Positions 8,801-64,000 of a DNA stretch of 64,000 bases are shown here, in pieces. Every line of letters starts with the position of its first letter. The first letter of the stretch is position 1. Position numbers and translations under genes: made by a program. A model generated the notes under the pieces. The model saw nothing but the letters and a program-made list of their open reading frames with translations. It did not search any database and was not told the origin of the DNA. This stretch comes from Marsupella aquatica (lineage: Eukaryota > Plantae > Marchantiophyta). Location of the stretch: NCBI GenBank assembly GCA_973895155.1, contig OZ316896.1, forward strand, positions 15,162,684 to 15,226,683, written 5' to 3'.

Positions 8801-9444
8801 GGGCATTGTAAGTTTGAATGACAACCATGTTATATCATGGCGCAACCTTGTATTATAGCTTTTGATGTTTATGTTTGTAAATATTGAATTCCAGAACAAT
8901 CAGAGGAGGGTCATCTTGTTTCTTTGATTAAAAAGAATCCTGGAATGTGAACTAAGTTGTTTGCCCACGATTCCAATGGACCAAGAACTTTTTGACACCA
9001 AATTAAAAGGTGAGCTTTATATATGTAGAAAGCAATGTTTTATAGTGGGTTGCAGAATGTCACCAGACATTTGTCAAACTTGATGGTTTATTGTCTCCAG
9101 CCTTTGGGATCCTTTCTCCCAATTAGGCATTTTAGGTTTTGGCAGCATTAATCAAATATTATTCTATTCAGCAAACTCTTGTCATGCATTTTATCACCAG
9201 CTTATAAACTTTGTCAAATCACTTTTTTTCCATCATGATTGTGAAGTAATTCATGGGCGTCAGTCCATCCCATATCATGTGCGGAGTTTTGAAGTAAAAA
9301 AGACCCTAAAACTTAACAAATAAAGTAAATTTTAATTATTGTTTAAGCACTTACTTTATGGAATACTCTAGGAGTATTCCCAAATTTGGTATTAAAATCC
9401 CTATTCGTCTTATGATTCTCAGACCCTGGGTGAAGCAACATCAA

Positions 9445-18786: not shown

Positions 18787-27656
<8,870 letters not shown>

Positions 27657-39619: not shown

Positions 39620-40087
39620 ACTAGCTCAATACCTGTGCGTTGCACAAAAGAAGTTGTGTCGGCCAAGATGTTGTTGAGAAAAAAAGATCTCATGTCAGCC
39701 AAGAGGTCGTTGAGAGAAAAGAAGTCGTTGAGAAAAAGAGATGTTGTGTTGGCCAAGAGGTCGTTGAAAAAAAAGTTGTCATGTCGGCCAAGATGTCGTT
39801 GAAAAAAAGATGTCGTGTTGGCCAAGACATCGTTGAGGGAAAATACCCGTGCATTGCACAAAAGATGTTAAGAAAAAAGATGTTGTGTTGCCCAAAATGT
39901 CATTAAAATAAAGATATCGTGGCACTCAAGATGTCGTGTCCCCCAAGATGTCACTAAGAAGAAAGTGTTGTGGCACCCAAAATGCTCTTAAAGAGAATTC
40001 TATGTTGTGTTTCCCAAGAATGATCATGTTCTTATATGAAAGATGTCATGAAATAAAAAGATGTTGTTAAGAAAAAGAAGTCATTTT
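39620..40087 (-). mobile_element. Helitron-like 3' end plus internal minisatellite; probably continues at 44324-44800 beyond the copia
   Basis: The minus strand reads hairpin tgtgcaacgcaca, then ~9 nt, then CTAG|T. Followed by an aagatgt(c/t)gt-type tandem array. Confidence 0.6.
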
Positions 40088-43000: not shown

Positions 43001-44323
43001 CAGGGCCGCTGGGTCGTGAACGGGGTGTCGAAAGAGGGGGCGGGGTGCCACCGGAAGGGGCAGCAAGCCCCAGCAAGGCTCGGGCACGCAAAAAGCACCG
43101 GCCGGCGCTGCGTGCCGCGGCTGCGGCGACCCACTACTCTGGTGCGGGGGGAGAGTCTTACACGTAAAGGGGGGTGGCGGTAGTACGAGGGCCGTGAATG
43201 GGGTTACGGGGTGAGTATACACACCTCGTGTGTGTATACACACACCAAAACCCCTCTAAAAACCTAATTTTTTGCTACAAAAATTAGACGGCCAAGTTAC
43301 TTACAATGCCGCCACCATGTTGCTTGAGAGAAGTGATGACTGCCGACGGGAAAAGTTGTCGAATCACACCGGCGCCGTCTGCAACTCCAGCACTGTAAAA
43401 GCTTCCGCCTCGACGCCTTCACTCCGCGTCAAGTGCCAATCCCGGGCTCAAAACGACCGCCTCGCCGCGATCAAATTGTTGAGCCGTAGCACTTCGCGTT
43501 TCTTCCACCGAGTTGCACGTCACGAAGAGAAACCCGTTTCAGATGAGAACAAGCTCCATAGCTTGTGAAAAAACCTGAATGCCTCCGTCACTCGTCACGT
43601 CACACTCGGTAACAACTCGGCAATAGTCAAGCTACCAAAATGACCAGCTCGCTTCAACCTTCAACTTGAGCTAAAATGTGAGATCTCCCAAACACCGCAT
43701 GGCTCACACCGTTGAAAAATGCGATCTCTGGTCTCTCCCCCGAAAACCCGTTGAACACGGATAAAACCTGAACGATGCAAACTTTGATTCCTCCGCACCA
43801 TGGATACCGATCAGCGAGTTCTAACCACTGTTAGAAAGCCCTCTCACTAACCTATCCGCACAGCCACACACATTCGAGTTTCATGCGATGAAACTTTGAA
43901 TGTACCATCGACAATGAAAGCTGGAAAAAACCTGTCACGAAAAAATCTCGTCACCTCCCAGGCATGCTCTGATACCACTTGTTGAGCATAGACGACATTC
44001 GTAACGGCAAGCCCATGAACCATCCAACGCAGAAGAGTCGACACAGAGAGATACGTGGTTCACCTCCACATGAGGCTATGTCCACGGCAACACACAAGAG
44101 CTTTACTGCACTCTAGGCCGACCGGCCACACCAAGCATCCACAGCACAAGCTCTCCCTATCTCTCAACTAGCTCCGTAACAATGAGCCTAAGTTCCACCA
44201 GGGTCTGGCATCAGCCCTGGCTATATACACAACAGCACTACCGCTAACAATAGCTAAGTCCTAACCCGAGTTAGCCTAACTGTAGTTAGCTCATGAGTCA
44301 CAAGACTAGAGCAATATCTAACA
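40088..44323 (-). mobile_element. 3'-truncated Ty1/copia (Tnt1-like): 5' LTR, long leader, gag-protease-partial integrase
   Basis: LTR 43980-44323 (TG..CA), PBS tggtatcagagc at ~43966-43977. Motifs KFEVEKYDGRTNYLLW, CWNCGKPGHMKRDC, WILDSACTFH, LWHFRLGH, CEHC, VHSDVWGP. Breaks off after VENQTG; no RT or 3' LTR. Confidence 0.92.
41433..41775. mobile_element. 343-bp AT-rich TIR element (MITE) with 4-bp TSD in the copia gag
   Basis: 22-bp TIRs atcaccctattcattaaaagtg / atcaatctattcattaaaagtg, TSD tctg at 41429-41432 and 41776-41779. Excision restores gag ...EDASDRLYKKSLL. Confidence 0.88.
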
Positions 44324-45460
44324 GAGGTGAGAAAATATCTCAAGGTGAGGAAAATATCTCAAGGTGAAGAAAATATGTCAAGATGAGCAAAGATCTTGAG
44401 GTGAGAAGATCTTAATATGAAGAAAAGATGTCAAGATGAGAAAATATTTGAAATTATTTTTAAAAAATTAGATTTATTTATATATGAATAAATTTAATTA
44501 AAATTTGATTAATTTTTTCATTGTGGCAGATATGGGAAGGTTAAAGGGTAGCTTGGGCAGGAACTTATTTTTAGAAGGGGTGTATGGATAGATCTGACAC
44601 TGTGGAAAAAATTATGTTTTGATGAACATTCAAGATTGATTGTCACTTTTTTTAGGTTGTAAAGGGAGAGGCATGATTATAGTGGTACATGGTAAAGGGA
44701 GTTCTCCTTGATACTCTTGCATAGAGACCCTCATTATTTTCTTTGTATTATTAAATTCATTTTTTGCTTGGAAACATTGCTCTCCATTTTCATTCACATA
44801 GGAAATCATTCTTTCATGTTTTTCATTTTTGGGATATGACTACTATAAAAAAAGTAACATTTTATTATAGATTTTGACATTATCCTTGTCACGTAACCTA
44901 TTGTGTTTAATTAACCTATTTAAATTAAATTAATATAATTATTATATTTTACAATATTATAATACTTGCAATAATACATAGTATCATATATATTATGTAT
45001 TTTTATATTTCATGTATATGGGTTAGGAACCTCCTTGATACTCATGCATGTACATTCTCTCTCTTGTTTTGTGTGCCCCATTGGCTCTCTCCTTTTGCGT
45101 CTCCCATTTGATTCTCCTCTTGTTTAGAATGCATTTATTACTTTTTTGGTGCACACTAAATTTAATGTAACCTTTATTCCTTCTCTTTGACATGATTAAT
45201 GCTTTTTGGACTCTGCAAATTTGAATGACGACCACTTCATAAAAAGGCGCAACCACTAGAAGGAAATCGGGATTTTATCACTACCTAATTCACTTGTTTC
45301 AGAGTGATAACGGACAATTTACAACTCAATGGTTTGAGTGCACTAATGTCAGTCGCTTTAGACAACTAGTCGTATTGAGCATGAAGTCGTTTATAACAAG
45401 TACTCAAAATGTATGAGTGGTTTATGTCACCATCGGTTTCAAACCCAACGGTCTTAAATA

Positions 45461-45997
45461 ACTAGAAAAATAACAGTTATTTAAATTTTTCCCAAAACAA
45501 CTACTATGGTGACTTTTTTTGACAAATGATACTTAGACATGTGGCGGTCTCCACAATCATTGGGGGTGACATTTGCCAAAAGTCAATTGTGGTCAATGCA
45601 CCTTGAACCTCAAACAACTTCTTTCATGACTAGAATTCAAGTAGAAACTATATAGCCCTTGCCACTATATGACTAGATTTTGAGTCTTAAAGATACTTTG
45701 TGTCAAACTTTTAATACTAGTTATATGACTAGAAAAATAACAATTATTAAATTTTGCCCAAAACGATTACTATGGTGACTTTTTTTGACAAATGATACCT
45801 AAACATGTGGCGGTCTCCAGAATCATTGGGGGTGACAATTGCCAAAAGTCAATTGTGATCAATGCACCTGAACCTCAAATAACTTATTTCATGACTAGAA
45901 TTCAAGTAGAAACTATATAGCCCTTGCCACTATATGACTAGATTTTGAGTCTTAAAGATACTTTGTGTCAACTTTTAATACTAGTTATATGACTAGA
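45461..45997. repeat. ~268-bp near-identical tandem duplication in the left subterminal region
   Basis: actagaaaaataaca...tactatggtgac...ctagttatatg unit at 45461 and 45728. Confidence 0.9.
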
Positions 45998-46703
45998 ATT
46001 GAAATCATAACCAAATTACATTTACAACTTGTAGTGTCACTAAATTTAAAGTGATAACATGACATATTAGACACATGTAGTACTTGCAGCTATATAACTA
46101 AGTTTAACGTAATAAAGATATTATTTTACAATTTAGTTCTTGATATATGTCTTAAATTGAAGTAGTAATTGTAAAGCTTTTGTTATTTGTTATATATGAC
46201 TGTATTTACAGACCTATCATTCAGTCCATTATTACTTGCTATATGACTACATCTTAAGTGTTATAGATTGCTACGTTACAACTTTAAAATGGGTGATGAA
46301 CATCATATCTTTGATAACTATAGTTGCAGTAGTATGGCCACAGTCTAGTATTGATCACTTCAATTGTAGTGATTTGGGTGTACTATAGAACTTGAATGAT
46401 AGTACATTGGAATGTCGAATCACTAGATGTAGAGTCATTAGTTTTAAAGTTCTAAACCCTAAATAGCAATAGCAAAAACCTCAAATGTCTCACATACACA
46501 TTCAAATAAATTTGAGAAATGACACAATCTTAGTAAGTCATCATTTCAAACACCAACAAAATTCCAGAGTGATACACATCTGGGAATCCAAAAACTGAGA
46601 GCCATAGTTGCACAATAGTATCCATGCTACCTATATGGGAACCTACATACTTCTTCAATCACATGGATTCTCTATTGCAAGCTCTACTCCTCAATTACTA
46701 ATC

Positions 46704-49676
46704 CTACTTCCTCATTAACTTCTGCCTCCACAAAAATGGGTGCCCCTTCACATGTTTGAGGGCTACCAAGCCTTCTGGGTGCTTTTCTTGGAGAGGTGCA
46801 TCTCCATTCAAAATAGAAACAGCTTTGACAATCAAGAAGCCAGTAGGAACTGGGTTGTCATAATATCGATCAAGTCCACATACTCCATCGATTCTGGCAA
46901 TAGCAATCACCTGCTGATCCACTGGTGATTTCAATTTCACCATGTCTCCTACTTTAAACTGTCACACATCAACAACATAACACAGCCATTTCATTACTTA
47001 GACTTGTTAATGATAAGTTACAGCAAATAAACGAATAGGACATGTCTTGAAAGCAATCATTTGCTTTTGCTCACCTTCAAGACAAAAGGTGAAGGGATCG
47101 ACTTTGAAAACTCTGTAACAATGGCTTCTTCAGATGACTTTGTCAAAACAACTTCAGGTGTCAAAGCTTCTATTATCTCCTGCAAAACAGATTAGGGTGA
47201 GACAACTTACATAAGCATGCCCTACCAGGTTCACATTACAAATTCATGGGATAATGAACATATTAATAGTACAAAGTTTAGGGTTTAGATGGTATTCCAA
47301 CCTTATCTTTGCCTGCTTGATCATGCTGCGCAGGCGAACTGTATACCACCTCTGTTTCTTCATTGATCTCTTGCTTCACAATCACTGGGTCATAATTGTA
47401 TTCCACAGCAGCATTGAGATCAATCCCCTGATCATCTTCAACTGCCCATTAACATTTCAAGACATTAGAAAACATTCACTAATCCAAGTCATGCATGCTT
47501 GATTACACATACTTTAACTGTCCTCTGTAAAGAACATACCTTCTTTGGTCAAGTCCACCAAAAAGTCTAGTTTCACAGCTGAAGTACTACGGCCTGAATG
47601 ACTTTTTGGAACTGAACTCATTCGTGAGGGCATTGAAGACTATCCCGGCCCAACTGGGATAGTTCTGGTTTCTTCCACATCTTGACTTAGGCTAGGTTTT
47701 ATCAAAACAGTTAACATTTGCTTAAACCCAACACTCATCACTGTACTTATTGCATTCACAATTATACTCAACATATGCTCATCACGTCCTTCCTCGTCTC
47801 CCATCATAGCCCTAGAACCTGGTGTCTGCAACCATTGAACAATCATACAAAAGTTAGTGGATATCACCTAGACTTGGCAATTTGGAAATCAAAAATTGGA
47901 CTTGTGAACTAATACTCACAATTGACTTTCTGCCTCTCCGATGAGATGGTGTGGTCTGTCCTGTGACAGATCTCACACTTGATACTCCAAATCTATCATC
48001 TTTTGAGCGTAGCTCAGACAGAGGTGGACTTTCCCCTCTTTTTCTCTTCTGAGCAATGAAACCAAACAATACATATTAGAATGAAACTTCTTGCTTCTTT
48101 GCATACCAATTGCTAAAACAAAGGAAGACACATGCTGTAAGCCTACTTGTTGTTTACAAACATTCATAATAACTGTAAATGAATCTTGTATACTTACAAA
48201 GTCAGACTCCTTCCCACGGTAGCCACCTCGTCCAACCCTTGATGGATTAATGACTTTAGATCTTGCATACTTCATCTTGTCAATGCTAGACATCCCTTCT
48301 GGAGACAGCCACCACTCACACAATGCCTTCCAATGTTCAGGCTTCACATTCTCAGGGGGCTTCTTGTCCAAGCGTCTTCCACCTTCCTGAAAATGTTTGT
48401 GGAGTCTTGCTCGCTGTGCTTTCATTACTGCTGAACAATGAGACCTGAACTTCTTCATTGACAGAGTCCCCTGTACATACTCCCAATCGTTCTCCAACAC
48501 AGCATAAACATGAAGAAGAACCCCTGAGTCTTGCTTCTTAATCTCACGGATAGAAGGATTCAGTTTACCCATACACACAGCACGAAGATCATCTCCCCAA
48601 CGTGCCCGATATGGATCATTGGGATCAACATCATTGTTCCAAATCTGCACACAATGCATCATAAGAGACCAATAACAGAGGACAAACAATAAATCACAAG
48701 CATGATCTTTCACAAGCAACATACAGTGATTGCAGCTTTCTTCATGCCCAACTTGCGACACTCGCTTGTGTTCTCTTCCCATTGTTTCTTTGCAGCACGA
48801 GATGATTGTCGTACGTGTGTCTGTTCTGATCTTTCTATGACAATTCCATCATCCAGATCATGAGCAGATGCTCTAGGCAGGGTGTCACTACCACAACCAA
48901 CCAAAGAGATTCTGTTAGCAAGTCAAACATTAATGTAACTTGTGACAATCAATCTGCAACTGTGAGAATCTCTGAACTCAGGATTCACTTGGCAAGTCAA
49001 AAACAAGTTCATGGCAAGTGAGGTAATGAATAAATTACTTACACACACTCACTTCCTTTGTCCTAGGATCCACATAATATTTAAGCCCTGACTTTCGGGG
49101 AGCCTGAGGATAACAGTGTGCACATTCAAGTAATTAGTAATAGTAGCACCAGATTGAGATATACAGAAATTGGACAATTAATGCAATTAGCTTCAAGTGA
49201 AGTAGAAAATGACAGTGAGTCTTCTCTTACCTTACGTAGCTCTTGAACACCATCTGATTCGTGATCATCACTTAAACCTGCCCCATAATTTGTGTCAGCT
49301 GATTTTTCAGACTCATCACTCCCACTGTTGTCACTCTCCATGATTTTCTCCAGGTGCCTGCCAAGTAATCGTGAACTCCTACGCTTTGCTATAGACGGCT
49401 GATTCTGTTCAGTCTTCTTTGACAACTTAGATAGACGCTTGACCCTTGCCTCACCCTGTAAACTGCAATCACCCTGGCAATGTCATGAGTGTGAACCATT
49501 AATTAGTAATAAAGTCAGGGCATAAATTCAAAACTATATAGGGATAGAGTACATACTTTAAATCTCTTGCAGCAGTTCCTACGAACTGGTCAAGTATAGC
49601 TTGGTTGGCTGCTATGTTCTTATTCCTCTGTGCCTCATAGGCATTCTCAGAACCTTTCACCCCAGACCGATCATGC
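46704..49676 (-). CDS. Multi-exon CACTA TnpA/Ptta-like protein; exon boundaries approximate
   Basis: N-terminal AYEAQRNKNIAANQAIL, RRSSRL, and a Transposase_24-like block PPENVKPEHWKALCEWW...ARSKVINPSRVGRGGY. C-terminal exon VKLKSPVDQQVIAIARI...HPFLW. Many GT-AG introns. Confidence 0.7.
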
Positions 49677-49751
49677 ATTTCAATTCAAAACTGCATAAAA
49701 AACACTATCACCAAAGAGCAATCAGTACTTCCTGCCCCAAGAGGCACATTC

Positions 49752-52700
49752 TCACTCTTCATCTGAATCTTCTTCACCTTCCCAGACATCATCATCATCA
49801 CTATCACTTCTTGTCAACACTGCCATCTCCTGAAAAACTACAATTTCTCCTTCATCCAAGGGCAGTCGTCTGTTAGCTGCTGCAACAAGCTCAGCCTCAA
49901 CAGCCTCATGACGATCCACAAGATCATTAAACTCAAGGTCATTTATACCCTCAACAACTCGTCGAGACCTCCCTTCCTTATGGAGGACATGTCTCCAAGA
50001 GGCCCTGGCTGTGTTTGGGTAAAAGAAAACCTGCTCAATCTGACTGGGCAAGACATAATCTAATTTCTCAGCTGAGGGATAAGGCATATTAAAATTAGCA
50101 AGCCATAGGCCAGTCTCATCATGTTTCATTGATGGATTAGACCTCTCCTCTCCCCACTTAGACCGCACCCACTTTGCCTTCAAGATTATGGCTGGTTCAG
50201 AATGTAACAGAGGTCCATAGTCAAGCACAAGTATCTGTGTCATAACCCCCACATATGTAAGCTTGGCCAAATTCACTCCAGTTTCTTCCCTGATCTGCTC
50301 ATGGAAAGTTGTGGCCACCCCTGAATCGAATGTAGCATATCCTTGACAATCAGTGTCCCTGAGAGTGGACATCTCACGCCATTCACCATTCCTATCTTTG
50401 CAGCGCATCACTCTGTAATGGTTCCCAAAAGCCTTCATTGAATTGTAAGACAAAGCCTTCTGGCTTGGTGGAAAAGAAATTGCAGTCAACAACAACTTGT
50501 CCTCATTGTCATCCAGGTTAGCCTTGTGTATTGTATCCCTGAACCACACTCCAAAAGGAATGGAAGCAAATTCAGCAGGACAGGCCATTGCTTGACGTCT
50601 GCCTCGTCGTCGTTCTGCATTATTTTGTCTTACAACAGCTTCCCTTTCTATCCTTCGCTCCTCCTCTTCTGACTCATACAACCTTCCAAGCAAGCAAAGA
50701 ACAATGTCAGATATCATAAAAGAAATACTGTCTTATTGTGAAAGCGCATTTAGAACTACATTACTGAACACTGAGACAGCCATAAACAAAATGAGCTTAT
50801 CATGTACCTGAGCCATGGTGCAACCTGTACATGGTTCTGTAGGTAATAGGTGTGGGCAGCATCTCGATCAGCAACAGTTAGAGACAGTTTACTTGAGGCC
50901 CCTTCCAGGACCACACCTTTAACCCCTGCCTCTTCTTCAGAGTCCCAGACCCGCTGCCAAGTTACTTTGCACTGAACCATATACTCTGTGAGAAATCCCA
51001 ATGCCTCCTCTAGGATATAACCCTCAGCCATAGATGCCTCTGGTCGTGCCCTATTTCTTACAAAAACCCTTTAGGTTTTTCAGGTATCTCTCGATTGGAT
51101 ACATCCACCGTTGTGATACAGGTCCACATATATCTAGCTCTTCCACTATATGCACCATCAAATGTGTCATGACATCAAAAAATGAAGCTGGAAAATGCAT
51201 TTCCAGAGCACACAAAGTATGTGCCACATCTGTCATCAGTTCATCCTTAGTGCTAGGGTCCCAGACCTTACAGCAAATTTTACGCCACACACGACACACA
51301 CTAATGATAGCCATTCGAGGTCCTGTTGCTATCAAGTCCTTCAATGCCAAGGGAAGTATCTGCTGCATTTGGCAATGGTAGTCATGAGACTTGAGACCAG
51401 CCAACTTATTGCTGGCTCTCACACACTTTGCCAATGAGCTACCAAAATCTGTGGGAACTTTCAAGTTCTTCAAAGTGCCCAGAAACTTCTCCAACTCTGG
51501 TTTGCTCATCACATAGGGCGCCTTGGGCTTCACAAAGTGATCCTTCTTATTGTTTGGATGAGGCTTCATCCATAGCTGCTCGTGAATGCCTTCAGCCTCC
51601 ATATCATTCCGCACAGCAATGGTATCCTTCTTCCCAGAAGTAGTGTGAATCAAATTCTGAGCAATGTTCTTCTCTGTGTGCATGGGATCCAGCACATGGT
51701 TGATCAGAAGTTTCTGTATGCAAACAACAAAAAGCAAATCAGTCCAACTGCAAATTGACATGTGTGTACAATGCTGGTTGCAATATCTTCAAGTAAAAAA
51801 CGTGAATGCAAGTGTGATTTTACTCACCGACCAGTATGGCAGCTTTGCAAGCCCTTGTGTCCTCTTCACCCCATGAAGCTTCGAAGGACAGTTCTTGCTT
51901 CCTTGTTTGGCCCCAGGTGTTTTCAAGTACTCTTCCACCTCAGCAGCAAAGGCTAATTTTTGCTCACAAGTCATCCTTGGGGGAGGCCCCTGTGGCTCGC
52001 ACTCCCCATCAAATTTTGCTGCATAACTTTGGGAGCGGTACTTATGGTTCTCCTCCAACCACCTTCTACTCCCCAGAAATACATTTTTGGATAGAGCAGC
52101 AGACCTTCTGCAGCTCACATTGGGACCACACACAATGCATCCATGATATCCTTTTGTGACTTGACCCGATATGAGACCCAAAGCTGGATAGTCATTCACT
52201 GTCCACAATAGAATGGCCCGCAGATTGAACCACTTATTCAGGCCAGGCCTATCAAGTGAATCAAAGCATGGAACTCCCTCCCAGAGCTCCAAAAGCTCCT
52301 CCAACAATGGAGCCATGTAAATGTCAATGTTGCGGTCAGTCACTGAATCAGGCCCAGGGATCAGCAAAGATAACATAATGAAGAACTTCTTGGTGGACAA
52401 CCAAGGGGGCAAATTGTAATTCAACAATACCACAGGCCACGTAGAATGCTTGAGGTTGTTTTCCCCAAAGGGATTCACACCATCCAGAGCCAATCCAAGG
52501 TGTACATTGCGAGGCTCTGCTTCAAATGTTGGATCAATTGTTGTATCAATCTCCTTTCATGCCCTAGAATCTGCAACATGCCGGACCTTTCCATCTGTGC
52601 TTTTACTGTCCTTATGCCATGTCATCAACTCTGAAATAGCCTTGCACCTGTACATTCGTTTCAACCTGGGTATGAGGGGGAAATGTCGAAGGACTTTCAT

Positions 52701-53593
52701 AGGTGCTTTGATTGCCCAACCTGCTTATACCTAGGCTTTTTGCACAGTGGACACTCATCGCAATCAGCATGCTCCTTTCTAAATAGGACACATCCATCCT
52801 CACAAGCATGAATTTTGACATAATCCAAGCCAACATGACTGATTAGCTTCTTGCATGCATATAGGTTTTTAGGCAGCAGATTCTTAGCAGGCATCAACTG
52901 TTTCCCCATCAACGAAAGCAGTTCATCAACTCCAGAGTTGGTGAAACCATGATTATGGCATGTGTTTAGAAATGTCAACACAAATGACAATTGGGAAGTA
53001 GTGGACCCCTCATACAAAGGGGCACACGCCTCTTCAAATGCTCGCATCATCTTCTCCTCTGCCTGTTGGTCCCAAATCTGAGATGTTGCTTCTCCAGATG
53101 TACTGTCCGCCTCCAGAAGATCATCCATGTTGAAGAGACCCTCTTCACTTTCCTGCAAAGTGGGCTCCTCTGCAGTGGTTTCTTGGACGGGTTCACTGGC
53201 ACTAGCAGTTTCACTTGGTATTGCTAGGTCCTCTAGTATCCCAGGGATATCTATGCCACAATCCATATCATTGGCAAGTTCCTCTGCACATCTTGCATTG
53301 TCCACAGGGCCCTCAAATGCACCATCCCCCTCCATGCATCGTGCATTCCACTCATCATCAGAAGAGTCACAGTCCTCTCCCCACCAATACCTTTGCGATG
53401 GGTGGCGAGAATTCTGAATGAGGTGCTTTTTAACAGTCCCTAGACTAACACGATTACCCCTACAGTTGCAAATGTAGCAAGGACATTTTATCTTTGTCAT
53501 CCCAGCAGCTCTACAGGCTGCAGTCTGTCGACGCCACAACTTGTCATCCCTCCTATTCAAGTCATCTTGACTACCACGAAAGTTCCTCAACAT
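49752..53593 (-). pseudogene. CACTA TnpD/Tnp2 transposase, 3 exons (~53593-51828, 51715-50808, 50682-49752), with lesions
   Basis: KIKCPCYIC, YVKIHACEDGCVLF, RHFPLIPRL, LALDGVNPF, YNLPPW, NDYPALG, DPMHTEKN, GLKSHDYH, FFDVMTHL, GPV..RWMYPIERY, MAEGY. Frameshifts at ~52700 and ~51055 and a TGG>TGA stop at ~52558. Confidence 0.95.
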
Positions 53594-53845
53594 TGTTTCA
53601 GGCACTTCAAGTCAATCCAATCAATGTCTTCCACTCAATTTGCCAAAATGCAGAGGACCCACGTACCTTGCAACCTCTGCAAGCTCTCTGGATACTGCAA
53701 TCCTCCACTCTAATGGTACCAGCACTGGACTCCACACCTCTAGGCTACTCTGCATGTACATCCATGACCATATCAGAATACAATGGTGTGTAGTCATAGA
53801 AACCCACTCCACTAGAGTGATATCAGATCTGTGAATCTTATCAGA

Positions 53846-54370
53846 TCAGTACAAATACCACTCCTGTGCTCGATTATAGTCAACCCTCAGGTACTCAGGC
53901 AAGTACATTAAGTCATCTAAGTCTAACCCAAGATCATGCCATGGTGGTCTACGATCTGTGCCTACAAGTAGTAGTTTCAATGCCTTCCATTGTGGGGACA
54001 TGGCTACCAAGTCCCTCCATTGGGTACTAATGAGTCGATATTGGCTAATGTCCTGCGCTGATGACATGGAAAGAACCCTAGGCCATACATTTGTGACTAC
54101 TAAATCATATGGCAAAACATGTAGCAAACTACTACATTCCTCATCATCCTCTTCACACCCGGCTTCACACTCATCTGCCGAAAAGTAAACCTCCTCCTCA
54201 TCTGCCTTACAATACTGTACAACAGATTCAAGGTTGACAATGGTTCTGCCAGGTGGGGGTACAAATTGTCGGATTACCAAACCAACCAGCCAAACCACCA
54301 CAAAATACATCCATGTAGCCACCCGTATGAGGAGTCTACATATGGTGTGGCGGTCTGGAATAAATGACAT
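53846..54370 (-). CDS. CACTA cargo ORF: hydrophobic/TM segment, acidic FFAT-like motif and F-box-like domain (174 aa)
   Basis: WMYFVVVWLVGLVI; EEEVYFSADE; LHVLPYDLVVTNVWPRV...YRLISTQWRDLV. Uninterrupted ATG-started ORF. Confidence 0.6.
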   Translation of the reverse strand: MSFIPDRHTICRLLIRVATWMYFVVVWLVGLVIRQFVPPPGRTIVNLESVVQYCKADEEEVYFSADECEAGCEEDDEECSSLLHVLPYDLVVTNVWPRVLSMSSAQDISQYRLISTQWRDLVAMSPQWKALKLLLVGTDRRPPWHDLGLDLDDLMYLPEYLRVDYNRAQEWYLY

Positions 54371-54996
54371 ACCGAGTGTAGTGTTTCACCTCCAACATTC
54401 ACTGGTGAGAACCTACAACATGGACATGACAATAAGCTCAGCTCCCTCATAATTTGTACTTGCCACTCCATAGTTTTCTCTTTTGAGTTCATACTGTGAA
54501 TTTTTATTTGCAGAAAAGTTTTACGTTTTATGTCTTTGTTTCATGTGTTTAGGATGCTTCTTTCAAACCTGAAACTCTATTGCTACCCACAGACAGCAGG
54601 TTGAAGAAAATACCCCATTGACAATGCCCCATCCATGACACCCAACAAACAAGACAACCAGATAAACACTGGGTCCAAACAATTCAATCACATCCACAGT
54701 ATTGACATCCATAAACATCAACTAGGATGGACCTCATACTGGTATACAAAATAATTACCAAATAAATAAGTAGAGTTTGAGTACTTTGATTTTCTAGACA
54801 GCTGGCCTTAGTCAATTAAACCCAAAGCATTGTCTCCATGCTCGTGCTAACCATTCACACAGTGAATAAAATGTGTGAACAAAATGTGTAAACAAAATGT
54901 GTGATGCGGACAAAACGTCATTGTTCCATTAACTAACTAAGTGTATCGATGTCTATAGTAGTATTGATGTATTTGAACCAAAATGGACCACGTCAA

Positions 54997-55650
54997 TCAA
55001 AGCCAGGAGATGTGATCATGAGCTGCTGTGCCTAGAGCAGGGTCAATAGGATGGTCAGGACAGTAAATCATCCAACGTCCCTGGTCATGTGCAGTATGAT
55101 GCCAGGGCACTCTGTCCGGTGCAAAACCTTGACGCTGGCTCTCGGCTAGGCAAGTACGATGCCAAGTTTTGGGACATCTCAAACACTGCACGGCCTCTGC
55201 CAGATGAGGGTCACGATGGTCTTGCTGGCATGCAACACATGTATGGATGGGGCAAGACTCCACATCAAGTGGCAAGCATCCATGACAATAAAAACGAACA
55301 CAATATGGCTGGGGGCACTGCCTGGCTACAGCAGAGACAATGCCACACTGAAAACACCTGTATGTCTTATCCTTACACTCTGGACAATACCAAGGATCAT
55401 CATCCTTGCCTGGTGCAATAAATACGGCAGGGCACGTGCCGACAACTTCACCAACTTTGGAAACATGGTGGAAGTGCCGATGGCAAGCCCCATCACACAT
55501 GGCCAGATCTCCATGCCAGTCACAAATGCCACAAAGCTGGGGACTACACTGACGTTTCTCAATGTCTGACCACAATTCAATCATCAACACATCTTCCTCC
55601 TTTCTCGTTCGAGTATCATTCTTTCTGGCTTTATGCTTGGTCCTAGCCAT
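54997..55650 (-). CDS. CACTA cargo ORF: H3-tail-like N-terminus plus EDM2-type PHD finger cassette (217 aa)
   Basis: MARTKHKARK; CGICDWHGDLAMCDGACHRHFH..WYCPECKDKTYRCFQC..CPIHTCVAC..CLRCPKTWHRTCL..IYCPDHPIDPALGTAAHDHI. Collinear with the EDM2 PHD region as I recall it. Confidence 0.85.
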   Translation of the reverse strand: MARTKHKARKNDTRTRKEEDVLMIELWSDIEKRQCSPQLCGICDWHGDLAMCDGACHRHFHHVSKVGEVVGTCPAVFIAPGKDDDPWYCPECKDKTYRCFQCGIVSAVARQCPQPYCVRFYCHGCLPLDVESCPIHTCVACQQDHRDPHLAEAVQCLRCPKTWHRTCLAESQRQGFAPDRVPWHHTAHDQGRWMIYCPDHPIDPALGTAAHDHISWL

Positions 55651-56481
55651 TAAGACCACTGGACATTCATGAACAAGAAAACTTGAAGAGTTATTACACT
55701 GCTAAATTGGCTGTCATAAAACACGTACTACCACTTGCATATTGCAATCCAATATGGGGCCAGGATGCAGAGGACTCACCAACTGTACTCAACCAAGAGG
55801 AAGGCACTGAAATTTGGAGATTGTCTTGATCGGTTTCAGATGTCGATCTCAATCCCCTCTCACGTCACAAGATGTAAAACAAGGATTCATAATCTGCAAC
55901 AACACAAATGTGACACAAAATAGTCATTGGACTACTGTATACATGCATCTGATGTTTTGTTTCAAACTCCTTCTGTAACTAAAGGTTGCCTCAGACTCAT
56001 TCAATACTATTCCAATTATGCAAAGGACAATAGGCTTGCCATTGAACTCAGAAAAATAATTGCATAGACACTCTTCAACTTTCTTCATTCACTGTACCCG
56101 ATCTAGAGCCATAAGGCATATGTGCGAGGGGGGAGTGGGAGTCATTGACAGAGACTTTAACTATTGGATTCAACTATCAGTTAACAGTAGATTGTGGGCC
56201 TTCTGGAACAGAGTCTTGAACAGAGATGTTGAGTGGACTGGTGACATCTTAGATTAAAATGTTGTGCTTAGTAGATAGGATTTTTGCAATATACTTCAAA
56301 ACTTTAATTCCACTGAGGTGTTCAAACCCTCAATCCAAAATTGTACAAATATAGAAAAAGTCAGAGCAGTTCAAGTTATTTCTCAGTGTTTAAGTTACTA
56401 TTTCATCCAAAAATATGCCTTATCTCATTGCATCCTGGTACGTGCATATTGTGTTAGAATTCCTGCAGCTGTAAACTAACT

Positions 56482-56934
56482 TCAAATCAAACATGATGTG
56501 TTCGAGAAACCCCCAATAGCGGGGTTGGGCAGGGCTGGACACCCAAGATCACTATCCACACCATTCAACAATGCAAAGTGATTCCAAAGGATGCACATCC
56601 TCCTACTTTGTTTAGCGGCTTTGTCAGCACCGACCAGGGTTTTTGGGTTGACCACCCTACAAGCAACGCAGTCATACTGGCAAGAATGGATACATCCATG
56701 CGCTAGGATGGCCTTGACGTGTGGCACTTTGCCAATAAGTGACACATACACCACGGATGTGGGAAAGGGTAATGCCACAGGTGGAGGCTGGCTGTAGTCA
56801 TTCTGGACTACAACTGGATAACGAAAATACCATGCAGAGTGGGCTGGCCATGTGCCACGTCTGACAAACTCCAGACGCAATCTCTCTGCGGTGCCTGCAA
56901 GACTCTGAGAATGAGCGCTGCGAGTCCTCACCAT
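56482..56934 (-). CDS. CACTA cargo ORF, 150 aa, unknown function, with a Cys/His cluster
   Basis: Intact ORF with good start context (gctATGG), preceded by a tttcag acceptor. HGCIHSCQYDCVAC motif. No family recognised. Confidence 0.45.
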   Translation of the reverse strand: MVRTRSAHSQSLAGTAERLRLEFVRRGTWPAHSAWYFRYPVVVQNDYSQPPPVALPFPTSVVYVSLIGKVPHVKAILAHGCIHSCQYDCVACRVVNPKTLVGADKAAKQSRRMCILWNHFALLNGVDSDLGCPALPNPAIGGFSNTSCLI

Positions 56935-58957
56935 AGCTTTTCTCGATCATGTCCTGTGCTGCTTTGCTCACGTCCACAGCAAGTCCACTCGCTCCTGAAA
57001 CTATAAGACCATGGTTAAAAAACTGGAGATTTCATCACTGACCCAGAATTTCAGTTTATATACAGGGATGAATCCCTGAACGTTTTAAAGGACAAGCTCA
57101 GACAGGCTCAAGACTTTCCCAATGCCAACAGTTGGTCATTCTATGTACCCCAAACACAAACAAGACTCCATTAACCATAATAGAGTACCAAATAGGATTC
57201 CAAGATTCATAAAAGAGAAGCAACAGCAGGAGACAAGATGAAGAAACTCAAAACATACCATTGACCATACCAGAGTTTTCAATCGGACGGCAAGACCGAT
57301 AGTAGGCCTAGCATTGATCAAGACAGACAAAACTCTGATACTAGTATAGCAAGTAAAGAGCTTCTTCTCTGCAACAAAACCAGTTTGTCTCTATTTCAAC
57401 TGTGAACCATTAGTCTCTATTTAAACAGTTAACCCGGGACGTGGAGAGGACAAGACTATTAAATGACAAGACTATTAAATGACAAGACTAAAGAGTATTT
57501 CATTCTTCCATTCTGTACTCATCTATAGCAAACAGCAAGCAATATGTGACCAGTATGCTTCTGTAAGCCTTACAGACCAGCAATATGTGACCTTAAAGAG
57601 AGGCTTTTGACAGGAATTCCGGTGAACACGGCCATCCACCAACGAGGGATAGGGGTAGTCCATACAATGAGCAAAACTGCAGAGAAGAAGGCAATGACAC
57701 GGATGATGGGAATCCAAAATAGCCAATAGGTACAGAGGATGAGATTCTGAAGCCCAAGCAACAAAGCGGAGTAGCTAGCAACCTAAACCTTGCTCTCGAC
57801 CGCCACTCAAACTTGCAGCTGATCGAATCCTGACTCTCAAAGTTGTAGCTGAGTCTTGCCTCTCAAACTTGCAGTGGCCCTCAAACTCGTACCTCACTCC
57901 CAACTCTCAAATTTGCACCTCAATCCCAGCTCTCAAACCTAGCAAGTCGATCGCTGATCACTCAAACACCTATATAACAAATTCTAATGAAGTTCTAGCT
58001 AATAAAACTCACAGCAACTTGCAGCGCAAGTGAACTCACCGTCGTAGCAGTTGGCAGGCGTCAATTGAGTTCACCTCAAATCTTGCAGCATTACAAGTGT
58101 AGCCCAACTCAAAGGTTGCAACAGAATTTTAACTCACTGTTACTCAAACTTGATCAGCAGCAGCAAGTCACTTCTTGAAACTGATCTTGCTGCACCTCCT
58201 AAAACTGCAAGTCGCATGTCAAGTCGTCTGAGCCTCAAACTGATGTTGCTGCGCCTCCTACAACTAATGTTGTTGCGGCTCCTCAAACTGCAAGTCGCAT
58301 CTCAGATGCCCAAAGCAGCAATGTAAGCGCAGCCCAAACAGTCAAACTCAATTGGAGACAACAACTTACCAGCTCAATCGGAGACAGCAACTTACCAGCT
58401 CAATCAGATGCAACAACAGCATGCGCACATCCCAGACTCAGTTGCAATTGATAACCCTTGCACAACCTCCTCAGTGAGAGAATATGCAAGAAGCTCCCTA
58501 ATATAGCTAAGGATCGAAGGTTTTTGCAATCAACGGAAGTGAGAGGAGTTACCGTAAGTCTTCACAAAATGAACCCAAGTTGGGGCTGGCTGCCGCTCGC
58601 TCAATGATAGCAAGTACAGTTGGGCAGCGATTGGAGGAGCCGAAGCCCGATGGATCCCGCAGCCGTGACCTCGTGCAGCTAGGGCAGCGATTGGAGAGGC
58701 GAAGCCCGATGAGTTCATCAGCAAAAGAAAGAATTCCGCAGCGGTGAGCTCACAGTCTCACATTCTCACAAGGCAACAGACCACATTCAGACCTAGACTG
58801 CCTGCAGATCCAACTCCCGTTTGGAAAAAGTGTTACCCAGGTTGAAGCTCAACTCAATGAAGTACCAGCTCACAGTTGGCAGACCCTAAATCGCAGCTTG
58901 CAATGATTGAGAACTCTATCAAAGCCCGTAGCTCGCTCCAACAGCTTGTAGCTGGAG

Positions 58958-59206
58958 CCGCACAACACAACACTCCTGCGCAGCCCTCCCGCAGCGCTCC
59001 GCAAAGCACTCCCGCAGCACACTGCACAACACAACACTCCTGCGCAAATCTCCGTGACCCACTGCCGAGAAGAATGATAATGGACCCAGCTCAATCGGAT
59101 AACAGTGAGCTAGCTTGGACGCGCAGCTCCGCACAGCACAACACTCCTGCATAGCCCTCCCTCAGCGCTCTGCAAAGCACTCCCGCAGCACACTACACAA
59201 CACTCC
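58958..59206. repeat. CpG-rich imperfect direct repeats (~171-bp period) in the putative CACTA leader
   Basis: ccgcaca.cacaacactcctgc..agccctccc.cagcgctc.gcaaagcactcccgcagcacact x2. Confidence 0.8.
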
Positions 59207-59280
59207 CACAGCTCCACGAGCCCTGATCTGATTGCAAACTCTTTGGGCAAAACAGAAGCGCAACTCTCGGGTATGCAACT

Positions 59281-59296
59281 CCCCTTTTTATAAGGC
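59281..59296 (-). promoter_or_regulatory. Putative TATA box of the CACTA transcription unit
   Basis: Minus strand gccttataaaaagggg at the boundary between the AT-rich upstream DNA and the GC-rich leader. Confidence 0.5.
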
Positions 59297-61099
59297 AAGT
59301 TTTTAATTCCTTATAATGGCCTTATATCCAATTGACCATCTTAGATTTCGTTTTAGTCTACTAAAGTCTTGTACCTCTGAACTCAAGGAATCCAAAAATG
59401 TAACTTAAAAAAAAAACCAAACATGTTTTGATGTACAAAAAATTGATCAAAACCAAGTTATATGGGTTTTTTTTAATACAGGGGTCTACAGCAAAACTAG
59501 CCAGCTTTTTAGGATTTTTATTAAAATTTTAAAAATATTTTAATAAAAATTACAACATGTATAGGAATATTTTTTAATTTCATATGGAAAATGAAGAAAA
59601 CCAAACCTTTTATATGACTTGAAAATTTTTAAAAGTGGAAAACCCAGGTTTTTTCAAATTTTAATTATTTTGTATAGCCAACTTTTTAGTCCATATAAAA
59701 ATGTAGACCCCTGTCTATTATATAAGACTTGCGTACCCGGGGCGCAACTTTGCTAAACCCGGGGCTAAACCCCTCGACTCCCTCGCCCTAAACGCTTTGT
59801 GGCAGACACACAAACACAACATTCAACGTTGAGTCTCGATAGTTTGTGGGAAAAATAAAACTTGACTCACAGGCCTGCGGGTGCAAAGGGTGCAAAGAGC
59901 CGTTTGGCGCGAACCTAACTGACATGTCAGCCGGCCCCTAGAGTGATCTCAGCCGTCCGGATGAAATGAGACTGCCTTGAGTGATCTCAACCATCAATGA
60001 GGCTGAATTTGATGTTAAGCCAAGGCCCCCAATCCCTCTACTTCAAGTGTCTCAATTACACTCCAAGCATTGTCTAACCCCACAAAATAAGTGCTAAGTC
60101 ATGACAACTCTGCCCTCTCAATGTATAGCAAAAAACCAATAATTTCCAATATGCCACCAACAATATTAGGTGGTATAATTAGGTACTAGTAAGTATTGTC
60201 ACATGCACTAGACTTTCTTTGTGTGAAAAATGACATCATCCATATGGACTTTTTTGTGTCATTAATGAAATGATCTAATACGAGTCTGACTAATATAATG
60301 CCAATTCAAACATTTGTCCTAAACCCATATTTTATTTTATAGAGTACCCAATGAGCTATCACTTTTTGCCTATTACCAATTTTAATACCCTAGTACTCCT
60401 TTAAAGTGTGTTACAAATCACACAAAGCTTGAGAAGAAATGTAGGTGGTGCCATGTCACCAAACAATACTTTTTCTATGACACTCAGTTGAGAGTTACAT
60501 AAACCATCCGGAAACCCCTCGCTTCTACGTGCCCTAAACCCTGTACTTCATTTAAATTGCTATCATATTCTCTGGATATATTATTATCCCTTGGCACCAT
60601 TCACTTAACTTCTCTGGTAATTTAATTATCCACTCCGACCTTCAATCACTATGTTTTTTGTCAATGTTAAGTGGTATATATGTAGTCTTGCAGGTATAAT
60701 CCTTGGGAACCACCACATCCAAAGTGGTTTTGGCCAATCCTAAAAAACACCCCACTACTTACTTGATTGCAAGTTGTTAAAAAGAAACTATAATTATTGT
60801 ATCACAAAAATGGGGAACCAAACCACCACATTCAAAGTGCTTTTGCCAGCCCTCAAAAACCCACTACCTCTTTGCCAGTGGTTTCAGCAGTCTATCACTA
60901 AAATGTTGGTGACATTGTTACTGCACTGTGGTGAGAATCCGGTATGACATGATCTGTAGTGGTATTTACAAGATCTCTGTCCCTTACTTGATTGTCAGTT
61001 ATTTGTAAATTACAACATTATGTCATTTATCACTCAAGACTAGGTGATGGTACTAACACTAGAATACATGTGAGAGTTTGGAACCACATTGTTATTGAA

Positions 61100-63180
61100 A
61101 GTGTTTACACACAATTTACCCCATTCCACTTACTTCTCCACTAAAATAACGGTGATATTCTAAGTGGAATTTCCCTACACCCTCAAACTACCTCTTTTGC
61201 AGTGGTTTGGGAATTATGGCCACCCTACGACTACCACTACATCAGAAGTTCTTTGGAGGACTGCGTCATGTACCACATAAGTTTGAGTGAAAGTTTTAGT
61301 CACAAGAAATGAGGGCTTTGAAGCATATTATTTTGAGTGCTTTGGGGGGTGACAACCTTACAAAGAGAATATGTAGGCCATCTAGCTTTAGGCAAGTCTC
61401 GGAGGGCCATCAATAAAGGAGGAGGATTGGGCCCGCCGCCATAACAATTCCTCCGTGTTAGCCCCCCCATGGTGAAGCCGTGGGACACCCCCATCATGTG
61501 CGCCAACAAGTTATAGCAACGACAATGAGGTTGTGACGCATAAATTGCCAAGGTGGAGAGATTTGAGGCACCCAAGTGATGCAACATCATGAACTCCACA
61601 CAAATCACTCCAAGACTCTACGGAATTACAAATATGGGGCTTATGTGATGCATCCACACAATTCACTCCTTTTAGCACTAGTTCATGGCAAGTGGTGGCA
61701 CCAATGTGTGTTGCATGACTCAAATACGGGTGCAATTTGAACCCTAAAACCATCTCATTTGTAGTGGTTTGGGAACAACAATCACCCTCAAACTACCACT
61801 TCATGAGAAGTTGTTTTGAGAATGGATGATGTACCACCCCAACCTGAGTAACAATGTTAGTCGCTAGAAATGCGGGCTTTGAAGAACAGAGTTTTTAGTG
61901 ATTTGGGGAGTGACAAACTTACAAGGGATAATGAGAAGTGGATCCACCTCGCGACAATTGTCATAGGGCCGCGATTAAAGGAGGAGGGTTGGGCTGACGC
62001 CATAACAATTCCTCCATGTTAGCCCCCCAATGGTGAGGCCATGTGACACCCCCATCATGTGTGCCAACTAGTTATAGCAACGACAATGAGGTTGTGACGC
62101 ATAAATTGCCAAGGTGGAGAGATTTGAGGTACACAAGTGATGCAACATCATGAACTCCACACAAATCACTCCAAAACTCTACAGAATTATAAATATGGAG
62201 CTTATGTGATGCGTCTACACAATTCACTCCTTTTAGCACTAGTTCATGGCAAGTGGTGGCACCAATGTGTGTTGCATGACTCAAATACGGGTGCAATTTG
62301 AAGTCGCCAGAAGGCGAGGGCCCAAAACTACCTTATGTCAAGTGGTTTGGGCTGGTACTTACAAATGCACTTCATTGCAAGTGTTCATACCCAATTTACT
62401 TCTCAACTCAAATAACGGTGGTATCTTGAGTCGCATTTCCCCTAAACACTAAAACTACCTCATTTGTAGTGGTTTGGGAACAACAATCACTCTTAGACTA
62501 CCACTTCATGAGAAGTTGTTTTGAGGGATACATGATGTACCACCCCAACCTGAGTGACACTGTTAGTCGCTAGAAATGCGGGCTTTGAAGAACAGAGTTT
62601 TTAGTGATTGGGGAGTGACAAACTTACAATGGATAATGAGAAGTGGATCCACGTTGCCGCAATTCTCGGAGGGCCAGGATTAAAGGAGGAGCGTTGGGCC
62701 CACCGCCATAACAATTCCTCCTTGTTAGCCCCCCCCATGGTGAAGCCATGGGACACCCCCATCACGTGTGCCAACTAGTTATAGCAACTACAATGAGGTT
62801 GTGACGCATAAATTGCCAAGGTGGAGAGATTTGAGGCACCCAAGTGTTGCAACATCATGAACTCCACACAAATCACTCCAAGACTCTACGGAATTACAAA
62901 TATGGGGCTTATGTGATGCATCCACACAATTCACTCCTTTTAGCACTAGTTCATGGCAAGTGGTCGCACCAATGTGTGCCTCATCACTCAAATATGGGTG
63001 CAATTTGTAGTGGCAAGAAAATGAAAGCCCGAAAGGACCTTATGTTAAGTGGTTTGGGCTCGTATTTACCAATGCACTTGATTGGAAGTTCAAACACATA
63101 ACTTTCCTAAGTTAAAACATGGTGGTATTTCAAGTGACAGGTGCCCAAAACCCTCAAAGCACCTGTTGTGTAGTGGTTTG
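61100..63180. repeat. Three long imperfect tandem units (~560-710 bp) in the CACTA right arm
   Basis: Core atagcaac.acaatgaggttgtgacgcataaattgcc at ~61513, 62074 and 62781. Recurrent gtagtggttt/aaactacc motifs continue to 64000. Confidence 0.9.
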
Positions 63181-64000
63181 GGTACAATTTGTAAATAAAA
63201 AAATTGTTTGTCGCTATAATTCCGGCGGCATGCATATTGTGACTGAAAATGTGTGTTGATAATGACACCATGGGGAGAGGTTTTGGACATCACAAAATAA
63301 TCTGTTTAATTTTTAGTCATTTATCAAAACTGTTTTGACACTCTAATGTTGGTGGCATTTGCAGTGGCAAAATGTATTTAAAGAATGACATTACTTGAAT
63401 AAGAATGGAAAATGATCTACTTTATTTCAAGTCATTTGCAAGGTCCTGCATTGACACTCTACTCTTAGTGGTATTTGGAGTCACTAAAATGTGCGAAGAG
63501 AATGACATTCTTTAGAGTGATTTTGGACTAAGGAGGATGTGGCACTTGGTTTGAAGTTGCATCAAATAATATTTATTGGACTCTAATATTAATGATATTT
63601 GTAGTCAGACAATTTGTGATAATAATGACTTTATTAAAGAAATTTTGTACATTGAGAATTAATTCACTCAATCTTAAGTTGTTTGTAAGAATTTCCTTGT
63701 CACTAAAATATTTTAAATAATTTTGCCAAAATTCATTTGTGACTCCACTATTGGTGATATTTACAGTAACAAAAGGTGTGCTCACAAATGACATTATTTC
63801 AAGTAATTAAGATCACTTGGAAAAGCTTCACTTGATTGGGAGTTGATTGAAAAAGCACCTTTACCATTCAAATATTGGTGGTACTTGTATTTGTAGTGGT
63901 TTCGGTCAGTAGTAAAATCTTAGTTGAAAATAGAGTTGTAAACATCAACGGTGGAGTGAACGGTGGATTGTAGTGATTTGTAAATTTGTGTAATATACAA

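Follow-up and report, generated by a model that had tools for sequence, protein, structure and literature searches.

Gene content of the locus

The window, i.e. the whole 64-kb stretch of DNA analysed here, carries on its minus strand a stop-free 217-aa open reading frame (ORF; 55650–54997), whose translation starts with MARTKHKARK and combines a tail resembling histone H3 with a cassette of PHD zinc fingers. This PHD gene is most likely part of a CACTA (En/Spm) element, the CACTA linkage being known from this window alone. The annotated features are as follows:

8765–8866 (+): empty-site-like paralogue of the left flank, outside the element, fixing the insertion point (73% over 82 bp, E 4e-8)
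45251–45253: candidate target duplication, 3 bp (AAC)
45254–45271 (+): CACTA terminal inverted repeat (TIR), downstream end of the element (TIR match, loose ends at 45253/45254, empty-site-like paralogue)
47973–48782 (−): TnpA-like exon region (Transposase_24, E 0.077, weak)
49752–53593 (−): CACTA TnpD/tnp2 transposase region, broken (Transposase_21, PF02992, E 6e-38; DUF4218, PF13960, E 5e-22)
53846–54370 (−): accessory ORF in the interval between PHD gene and transposase, weak F-box similarity (PF00646, E 0.022)
54997–55650 (−): intact 217-aa ORF, H3-like tail, linker and EDM2/NSD-type PHD cassette (translation, Pfam, PDB, AlphaFold2)
55012–55533 (−): PHD cassette, residues 40–213, EDM2-derived; PHD2 shortened, ligand His replaced by Cys (Pfam, tree, alignment, structure matches)
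55534–55551 (−): family-specific Q-x-[SA]-[PA]-H/Q motif in place of the acidic patch before PHD1 Cys1
55621–55647 (−): H3(1–9)-like motif, residues 2–10, family core A/S1-R2-x-K4-x-x-A7-x-K9 (alignment)
55659–55779 (−): predicted intron of 121 nt (GTGAGT...CCAG) in the 5′ leader, a candidate from splice-signal inspection alone
56482–56934 (−): accessory Cys/His-rich ORF upstream of the PHD gene, no Pfam family (ORF translation, Pfam)
60700–64000 (no strand): array of repeats that are probably subterminal to the upstream end (7-mer sharing)

The ATG at 55650 is the first in-frame Met of its stop-to-stop frame, and a candidate splice acceptor is found 8 nt upstream of it. With the nearest strong donor (55779), 31 open codons but no upstream Met are obtained, which predicts an intron in the leader; donors farther upstream could add coding sequence before the ATG. 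A first-pass annotation of this DNA had described the ORF as intact and intronless, of which the former stands and the latter is qualified by this candidate intron. All four runs compared showed a 4-nt indel at 55664. The CpG observed/expected ratio of the PHD ORF was 0.37 vs. 0.24–0.36 for the transposase ORFs.

Pfam matches of the 217-aa protein comprised PHDvar_NSD (E 2e-5), PHD, PHD_NSD and PHD-1st_NSD (E 6e-3), all below the gathering cut-off, and its PDB sequence match was NSD3 (E 2.4e-5). AlphaFold2 returned a model with a mean pLDDT of 79.6 (<50 for residues 1–25), whose best structural matches, at middling Z scores of 6–7, were the PHD-C5HCH domains of NSD proteins. Profile search and structure prediction, both proposed at the outset as checks, hence agree on a cassette of NSD/EDM2 type. 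As had also been claimed, the other domains of EDM2 are missing: Pfam detected neither an RFD nor a methyltransferase-like part, and the ORF ends with the cassette. A sequence-specific DNA-binding domain was found neither by Pfam nor in the AlphaFold2 model.

Probable position within a CACTA element

The PHD gene is located 1.4 kb upstream of the transposase and on the same strand. The transposase is interrupted by a frameshift near 52720, a stop at 52559 and a frameshift near 51062 (three of four runs lack a base near 51062). With three such breaks in the transposase of this copy, the intact 654 bp of the PHD gene are not themselves evidence of selection.

The downstream end of the element is marked by a TIR 18-mer at 45254, the only match in the window. 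At the adjoining position (45253/45254), 59 records of run X2 depart from the window sequence, and their continuation matches the flank paralogue at 8765–8866. As this continuation is absent from 45254–64000, the ORF resides inside inserted DNA, the other end of which lies beyond the window or was lost. A second TIR was not present within the 64-kb window, nor did a general inverted-repeat search yield a TIR pair around the ORF within it; the first-pass concern that the ORF might fall outside the element is addressed from the downstream end. The number of 7-mers shared with the TIR-proximal 217 bp amounted to 118 and 128 per 2 kb at 60.7–64 kb, as compared to 36–91 in the other 30 bins, a count with no formal null. 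In four runs bearing three organism labels, all 30 bins of 44.1–64 kb were covered at 85% likeness, which denotes co-occurrence rather than physical linkage, and in the four runs ORF and transposase had summed contig depths of similar order, a measure that gives no copy number. A nested insertion within the CACTA element is a possible alternative arrangement.

Of the two accessory ORFs, the one at 53846–54370 (174 aa) contains an acidic stretch, and the one at 56482–56934 (150 aa) starts with MVRTR, which is basic and loosely H3-like, making it a possible second accessory gene of the element. A 265-bp tandem duplication (45481–45976) lies just inside the CACTA end. Elsewhere, the window harbors a broken non-LTR retroelement (9711–12634, minus strand; RVT_1, E 8e-8, plus a C-terminal Cys/His and nuclease-like part), which we take to be CRE-like; an exon with an MCM P-loop match (22495–22770, plus strand, E 4e-8), representing a host gene or a remnant in the 14–31 kb region; and two copia-type LTR retroelement remnants (32393–36540, plus strand; 40032–44300, minus strand), the second of which is interrupted by a 343-bp element with 26-nt inverted ends (41433–41775).

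A family of stand-alone PHD cassettes

A full HMMER scan, together with three word-index searches, collected 35 short relatives; five were near-duplicates and two were fragments that lack PHD1, and their removal left 28 rows. Members are stand-alone EDM2-derived PHD cassettes of ~210–245 aa, encoded on Logan, JGI and ENA contigs of 0.6–5.7 kb and unannotated or labelled 'hypothetical' where looked up; no member occurred among the named proteomes in the matches examined, and no relatives were found in viral or prokaryote contigs. The family includes >20 full-length open frames with conserved zinc ligands, and pairwise cassette identity ranges from 22 to 78% (median 43%; 226 pairs, alignment A3).

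A length-free scan revealed no closer fused (longer) form. The nearest named matches outside the family were liverwort proteins (Riccia, Marchantia, Calypogeia; E 3e-20 to 1e-13), followed by EDM2-type proteins with a DNMT1-RFD (present in the long matches P0028, P0029 and P0033). The family is closer to EDM2-like proteins (E 3e-20 to 8e-16) than to NSD chains (E 2e-5, from a different library); next after NSD, the PDB relatives of the family profile were PHDs of AIRE, CHD4, TRIM24 and BHC80. In a quick-search tree built from 23 family cassettes and 51 of the 113 others, which was midpoint-rooted without an NSD outgroup and does not prove the donor, a long branch (SH-aLRT 100) separated the family from the rest, and the liverwort proteins lay closest to it. 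A bryophyte is accordingly the probable host. Sequence comparison thereby supports an EDM2 derivation of the cassette. Liverworts also possess extra truncated EDM2-like genes (P0025–P0027, P0031, P0036) with an RFD-like region and a PHD cassette, but without the C-terminal part; these branch nearest to the family and may represent the donor lineage.

A JGI contig of 1.9 kb (L001) bears a family copy at 529–1200 that has an in-frame stop after codon 21 and is 48% identical to the window copy; over its 1.9 kb, there is no similarity to the window beyond this copy. Two further contigs (L002, L003) showed 27–39% identity over short stretches. At position 55028 of the window, a loose end in runs X1 and X2 encodes what looks like the C-terminal end of a divergent, P0005-like paralogue, and one organism therefore likely holds more than one subfamily.

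Conservation of the H3-like tail

Following Met removal, the window copy starts with ARTKHKARK and is identical to H3 at seven of nine residues, with K4 and K9 in register, as stated in the first-pass annotation. That annotation had listed a lack of conservation across copies among the outcomes speaking against its proposal; conservation was found. Among the 25 of 28 family rows that reach far enough upstream to be evaluated, 22 carry [AS]-R-x-K in the leader and three lack it, compared to a mean of 1.33 carriers and a maximum of six when leaders were shuffled by composition (5000 shuffles). In long, host-type matches, the motif was absent both from the same window of anchored sequences (0/76) and from the start of the protein (0/118). 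It should be considered that the pattern was chosen after viewing the alignment and that positions 1, 2 and 4 set the register; moreover, the members are related, so that binomial P values for motif conservation are too strong.

Of the positions independent of the register, A7 is found in 17/22 and K9 in 14/22 members (K or R at position 9 in 19/22). Other H3 residues are mostly lost (T3 in 3/22, Q5 in 3/22, T6 in 0/22, R8 in 5/22; S10 absent), and residues foreign to H3 recur (K6 in 12/22, P3 in 10/22), with K or R at position 8 in 14/22 and ARPKxKAKK as the commonest form. Linker columns 10–16 are unconserved, with no residue in >6/22 members. Identity to H3(1–9) amounts to three residues in two members, four in nine, five in nine and seven in two (median about 5/9). 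This distribution marks the 55650 copy as a peak of the family and A1-R2-K4-A7-K9 as the conserved core; the 7/9 identity was consequently rejected as a family signal.

The motif directly follows the Met in ten members, comes after two residues in six and after six or seven in another six, such that a Met is located 0–7 residues ahead of it in 22/22. MAFFT placed the motif in register unaided, and the two rows with a called start at motif position 5 (P0007, P0016) continue in register. The motif occurs in every main subclade, at a median cassette identity of 43%. Searches with the 25-aa N-terminus alone (no PDB match at E 10) and with the family profile (no histone among 35 PDB matches) were negative, the motif being too short for such searches. 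Taken together, the alignment supports the tail as a conserved family feature in the H3 register.

Remodelling of the PHD cassette

The first-pass annotation had likened the cassette to EDM2 in both its Cys/His spacing and its tail. The tail comparison stands, as IYC..H.ID...DH matches EDM2-type proteins. The spacing is not identical: the His ligand of PHD2 is replaced by Cys in 26/28 family rows (His in 108/118 long matches), and a helix of ~10–20 aa is missing from PHD2. PHD1 has changed, too. An acidic cluster, defined as D or E in the last four residues before Cys1, is present in 77/82 long matches vs. 0/28 family rows, where a Q at −6 from Cys1 is invariant (28/28) and mostly followed by [SA][PA]H. 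The aspartate of the CDG motif is kept in 28/28 family rows.

PHDs that read unmethylated K4 use an acidic cluster ahead of their first Cys and depend on the Ala1 amine being free (PMC3241642, in excerpt), and EDM2 is reported to bind H3K9me-containing tails (excerpts of PMC6208443, PMC7472560 and PMC7529245). Given the loss of the acidic patch and the altered cassette, EDM2-like reading of H3K9me2 cannot be assumed for the family, and the case for docking on H3K9me2 chromatin in the manner of EDM2 is weaker than originally proposed.

Possible functions of tail and cassette

The reading we prefer, and to which we give an even chance, is that of a transposon-encoded H3(1–9) decoy, i.e. an accessory gene that a bryophyte CACTA element likely carries and that joins a conserved H3 mimic to a captured and remodelled EDM2-type cassette and would tie up or redirect host H3-tail binders. 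The more specific scenario, wherein bryophyte CACTA elements captured and retuned an EDM2 reader cassette and fused it to a false H3 tail, sequestering or misdirecting host silencing complexes by virus-like histone mimicry, falls just short of even. The starting points are the intact ORF, the family-wide conservation of A/S1, R2, K4, A7 and K9, the EDM2 ancestry and one CACTA end.

Mechanistically, the disordered tail would enter the H3-tail pockets of host factors reading R2/K4, with PHD readers, MSI1/RbAp48-type subunits of PRC2 or deacetylase complexes, and K4 writers or erasers as candidate partners; this step is modelled on the binding of unmethylated human H3 mimics to NuRD. The zinc-finger cassette would constitute the docking or scaffolding half, its specificity presumably having drifted from that of EDM2, and the net effect would be to relieve silencing of the element. 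MSI1/RbAp48-type pockets accept internal basic motifs. For this reason, and because PRC2 represses transposable elements (TEs) in bryophytes (10.1101/2022.10.24.513474, in excerpt), these subunits are our first guess. Chemistry at K9 (SUVH/CMT) would likely be secondary. H3K9-methyltransferase preferences disfavour substrates with a weak R8 and no S10; as R8 is mostly lost from the family and S10 absent, the tail is less likely to serve as a substrate of these enzymes, and its methylation by KYP/SUVH, as initially suggested, has lost ground.

A decoy role would be in line with the H3-reader-type fold beside the tail. In addition, the iM-Z-R-X-K start (Z, small residue) that defines proteins mimicking the H3 N-terminus (H3TMs), and that 48 of about 21,000 human proteins fit (PMC8166343, in excerpt), is shared by the window copy (M-A-R-T-K, given a start at 55650) and by the 10/22 family members whose motif directly follows the Met. 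The following observations count against it: with two to seven residues between Met and motif, 12/22 members lack the free Ala1 amine that canonical PHDs need (excerpts of PMC3241642); the motif is missing in 3/25; the K4-binding acidic cluster is missing from PHD1 (0/28); and ARPKxKAKK would also be plausible as a nuclear-localisation signal or DNA-binding arm.

Alternatively, albeit with much lower probability, the tail could be the cassette's own ligand, folding back or chaining head-to-tail via the PHD groove to form an autoinhibitory or polymerising switch, perhaps released by modification of K4 or K9, that senses chromatin state. Tail and PHD1 did change together, inasmuch as the motif was gained and the acidic patch replaced by the invariant Q-x-[SA]-[PA]-H; besides, a variable linker places the motif 29–45 residues before PHD1 Cys1, every family row retains the CDG aspartate (28/28), and the non-H3 residues at positions 3, 5 and 6 could fit a private pocket. 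On the other hand, the usual contact for K4 disappeared with the acidic cluster (PMC3241642, in excerpt), and half of the family is without a free N-terminal Ala. Structure prediction favours neither outcome: the tail was undocked in two uninformative AlphaFold2 models (pLDDT about 33–49), and complex prediction for tail (2–31) and cassette (21–217) scored 0.00 and 0.02 against a mark of 0.34.

Equally unlikely in our judgement is a tail that merely acts as a basic nuclear-localisation signal or DNA minor-groove arm and resembles H3 incidentally, the cassette working alone, for example as an adaptor that directs the transposase to chromatin of a given type. Many DNA-binding proteins have N-terminal (M)xRxK arms; K6 (12/22) and K/R8 (14/22) bring in basic charge that is missing from, or dispensable in, H3; P3 is frequent (10/22), and T3, Q5 and T6 are not retained. 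This notion, however, does not readily account for a non-basic Ala at exactly H3 position 7 (17/22), the small residue at position 1 and the fixed spacing. Nor are Lys and Arg interchangeable at positions 2 and 4 (the count of 22/25 is reached without KxK or RxR forms), and basic residues further on are unconserved.

We regard it as improbable that the mimic recruits rather than blocks, so that the element or transpososome would gain host repressors (or activators) and thereby restrain itself or choose its targets: there is precedent in the human N-terminal H3 mimics FOG1, SALL1 and BCL11, which recruit NuRD via their R2/K4 motif (excerpts of PMC8166343), but Pfam and AlphaFold2 revealed no sequence-specific DNA-binding domain in the protein. 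Finally, although CACTA elements do capture gene pieces (PMC13317346, in excerpt), the L001 copy is a pseudogene and the CACTA context stems from one copy, a neutral Pack-CACTA fragment, or a host gene with no connection to the element, is very improbable, given a single clade on a long stem (SH-aLRT 100), >20 full-length frames at 22–78% identity, conserved zinc ligands, a motif absent from host donors and no member in the named proteomes examined.

Novelty and significance

Should the decoy reading hold true, histone mimicry, so far a matter of viruses and host proteins, would also be a strategy of selfish DNA. To our knowledge, few transposon proteins that counter silencing have been described, and the characterised plant example, VANC, acts through DNA motifs; imitation of a histone tail would be a different route, via the host's chromatin readers. 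The protein is small (217 aa), and >20 natural variants mark R2, K4, A7 and K9 as important residues. In Marchantia, PRC2 and H3K9 methylation both silence transposons, and the protein would be directly testable there. Irrespective of the role of the tail, the retuned cassette offers a natural comparison for ligand recognition by EDM2/NSD PHD1–3 cassettes.

The family is real, conserved and apparently undescribed, combining an H3-tail mimic with EDM2-derived zinc fingers, and is most likely transposon-borne. Among the top-ranked matches in the open full-text literature searched, neither a transposon-encoded H3 mimic nor a CACTA-borne EDM2-type PHD gene was found. A 2026 gene-capture review (PMC13317346) yielded no match to histone, mimic, PHD or decoy; a 2025 TE meeting report (PMC12859917) yielded none to mimic or PHD, and an Arabidopsis TE-product atlas (10.1101/2024.04.02.587720) none to PHD or histone.

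Comparison with known systems

EDM2 and its liverwort relatives (Marchantia MARPO_0005s0286 and MARPO_0028s0116, Riccia R1sor_003797) share the PHD cassette with the family, including a tail of the YC..H...TP.RDH type. In contrast to EDM2, family members have no RFD or C-terminal region, lost the acidic patch, shortened PHD2 with a His-to-Cys exchange and gained an H3-like leader. Assignment of the 217-aa protein to EDM2 itself was rejected, as Pfam found no DNMT1-RFD, the C-terminal methyltransferase-like region described for EDM2 (PMC3632883, in excerpt) is absent, and so is the acidic cluster.

That MARTKH is the start of plant CENH3, as stated in the first-pass annotation, is borne out in print (excerpts of PMC9842635, PMC11288735 and PMC4814585), and the first six residues of CENH3 are identical to those of the 55650 copy. 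With T3 in 3/22 and H5 in 2/22 members, this match is particular to this copy; mimicry of CENH3 was rejected, since neither residue is conserved and Pfam and AlphaFold2 gave no histone fold.

The short H3-like motifs of influenza NS1 (ARSK) and G9a (ARKT) likewise engage H3 readers, NS1 being a parasite protein, but as described in excerpts of PMC8166343 they are four-residue, non-N-terminal motifs without a fused reader cassette and are not transposon-borne. VANC of VANDAL (MuDR) transposons (PMC5735166 and 10.1101/2024.04.02.587720, in excerpt) resembles the present gene in being a TE-borne accessory gene that arose from a captured host chromatin domain and has a proposed anti-silencing role. 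Whereas VANC binds DNA motifs and causes hypomethylation, anti-silencing is here proposed from sequence; fold and transposon superfamily differ as well, and the 217-aa protein has no VANC/MAIN-like DNA-binding domain, its Pfam matches being to PHD families only and its folded part consisting of zinc fingers.

A close parallel is provided by the H3TMs (VRK1, BCL11, FOG1, SALL, PCLAF; excerpts of PMC8166343 and PMC9898751), which have in common with the family an iM-small-R-x-K start, a disordered tail and a chromatin-related protein. Several human H3TMs bind NuRD when unmethylated, and PHD or Tudor readers once K4 is methylated (PMC8166343, in excerpt). Unlike these host proteins, the family extends the likeness to A7 and K9, carries the motif internally by two to seven residues in 12/22 members, and presents it fused to a PHD cassette in what is most likely a plant transposon. 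By comparison, the protein would act as histone mimics do and, plausibly, in the manner of a TE anti-silencing factor.
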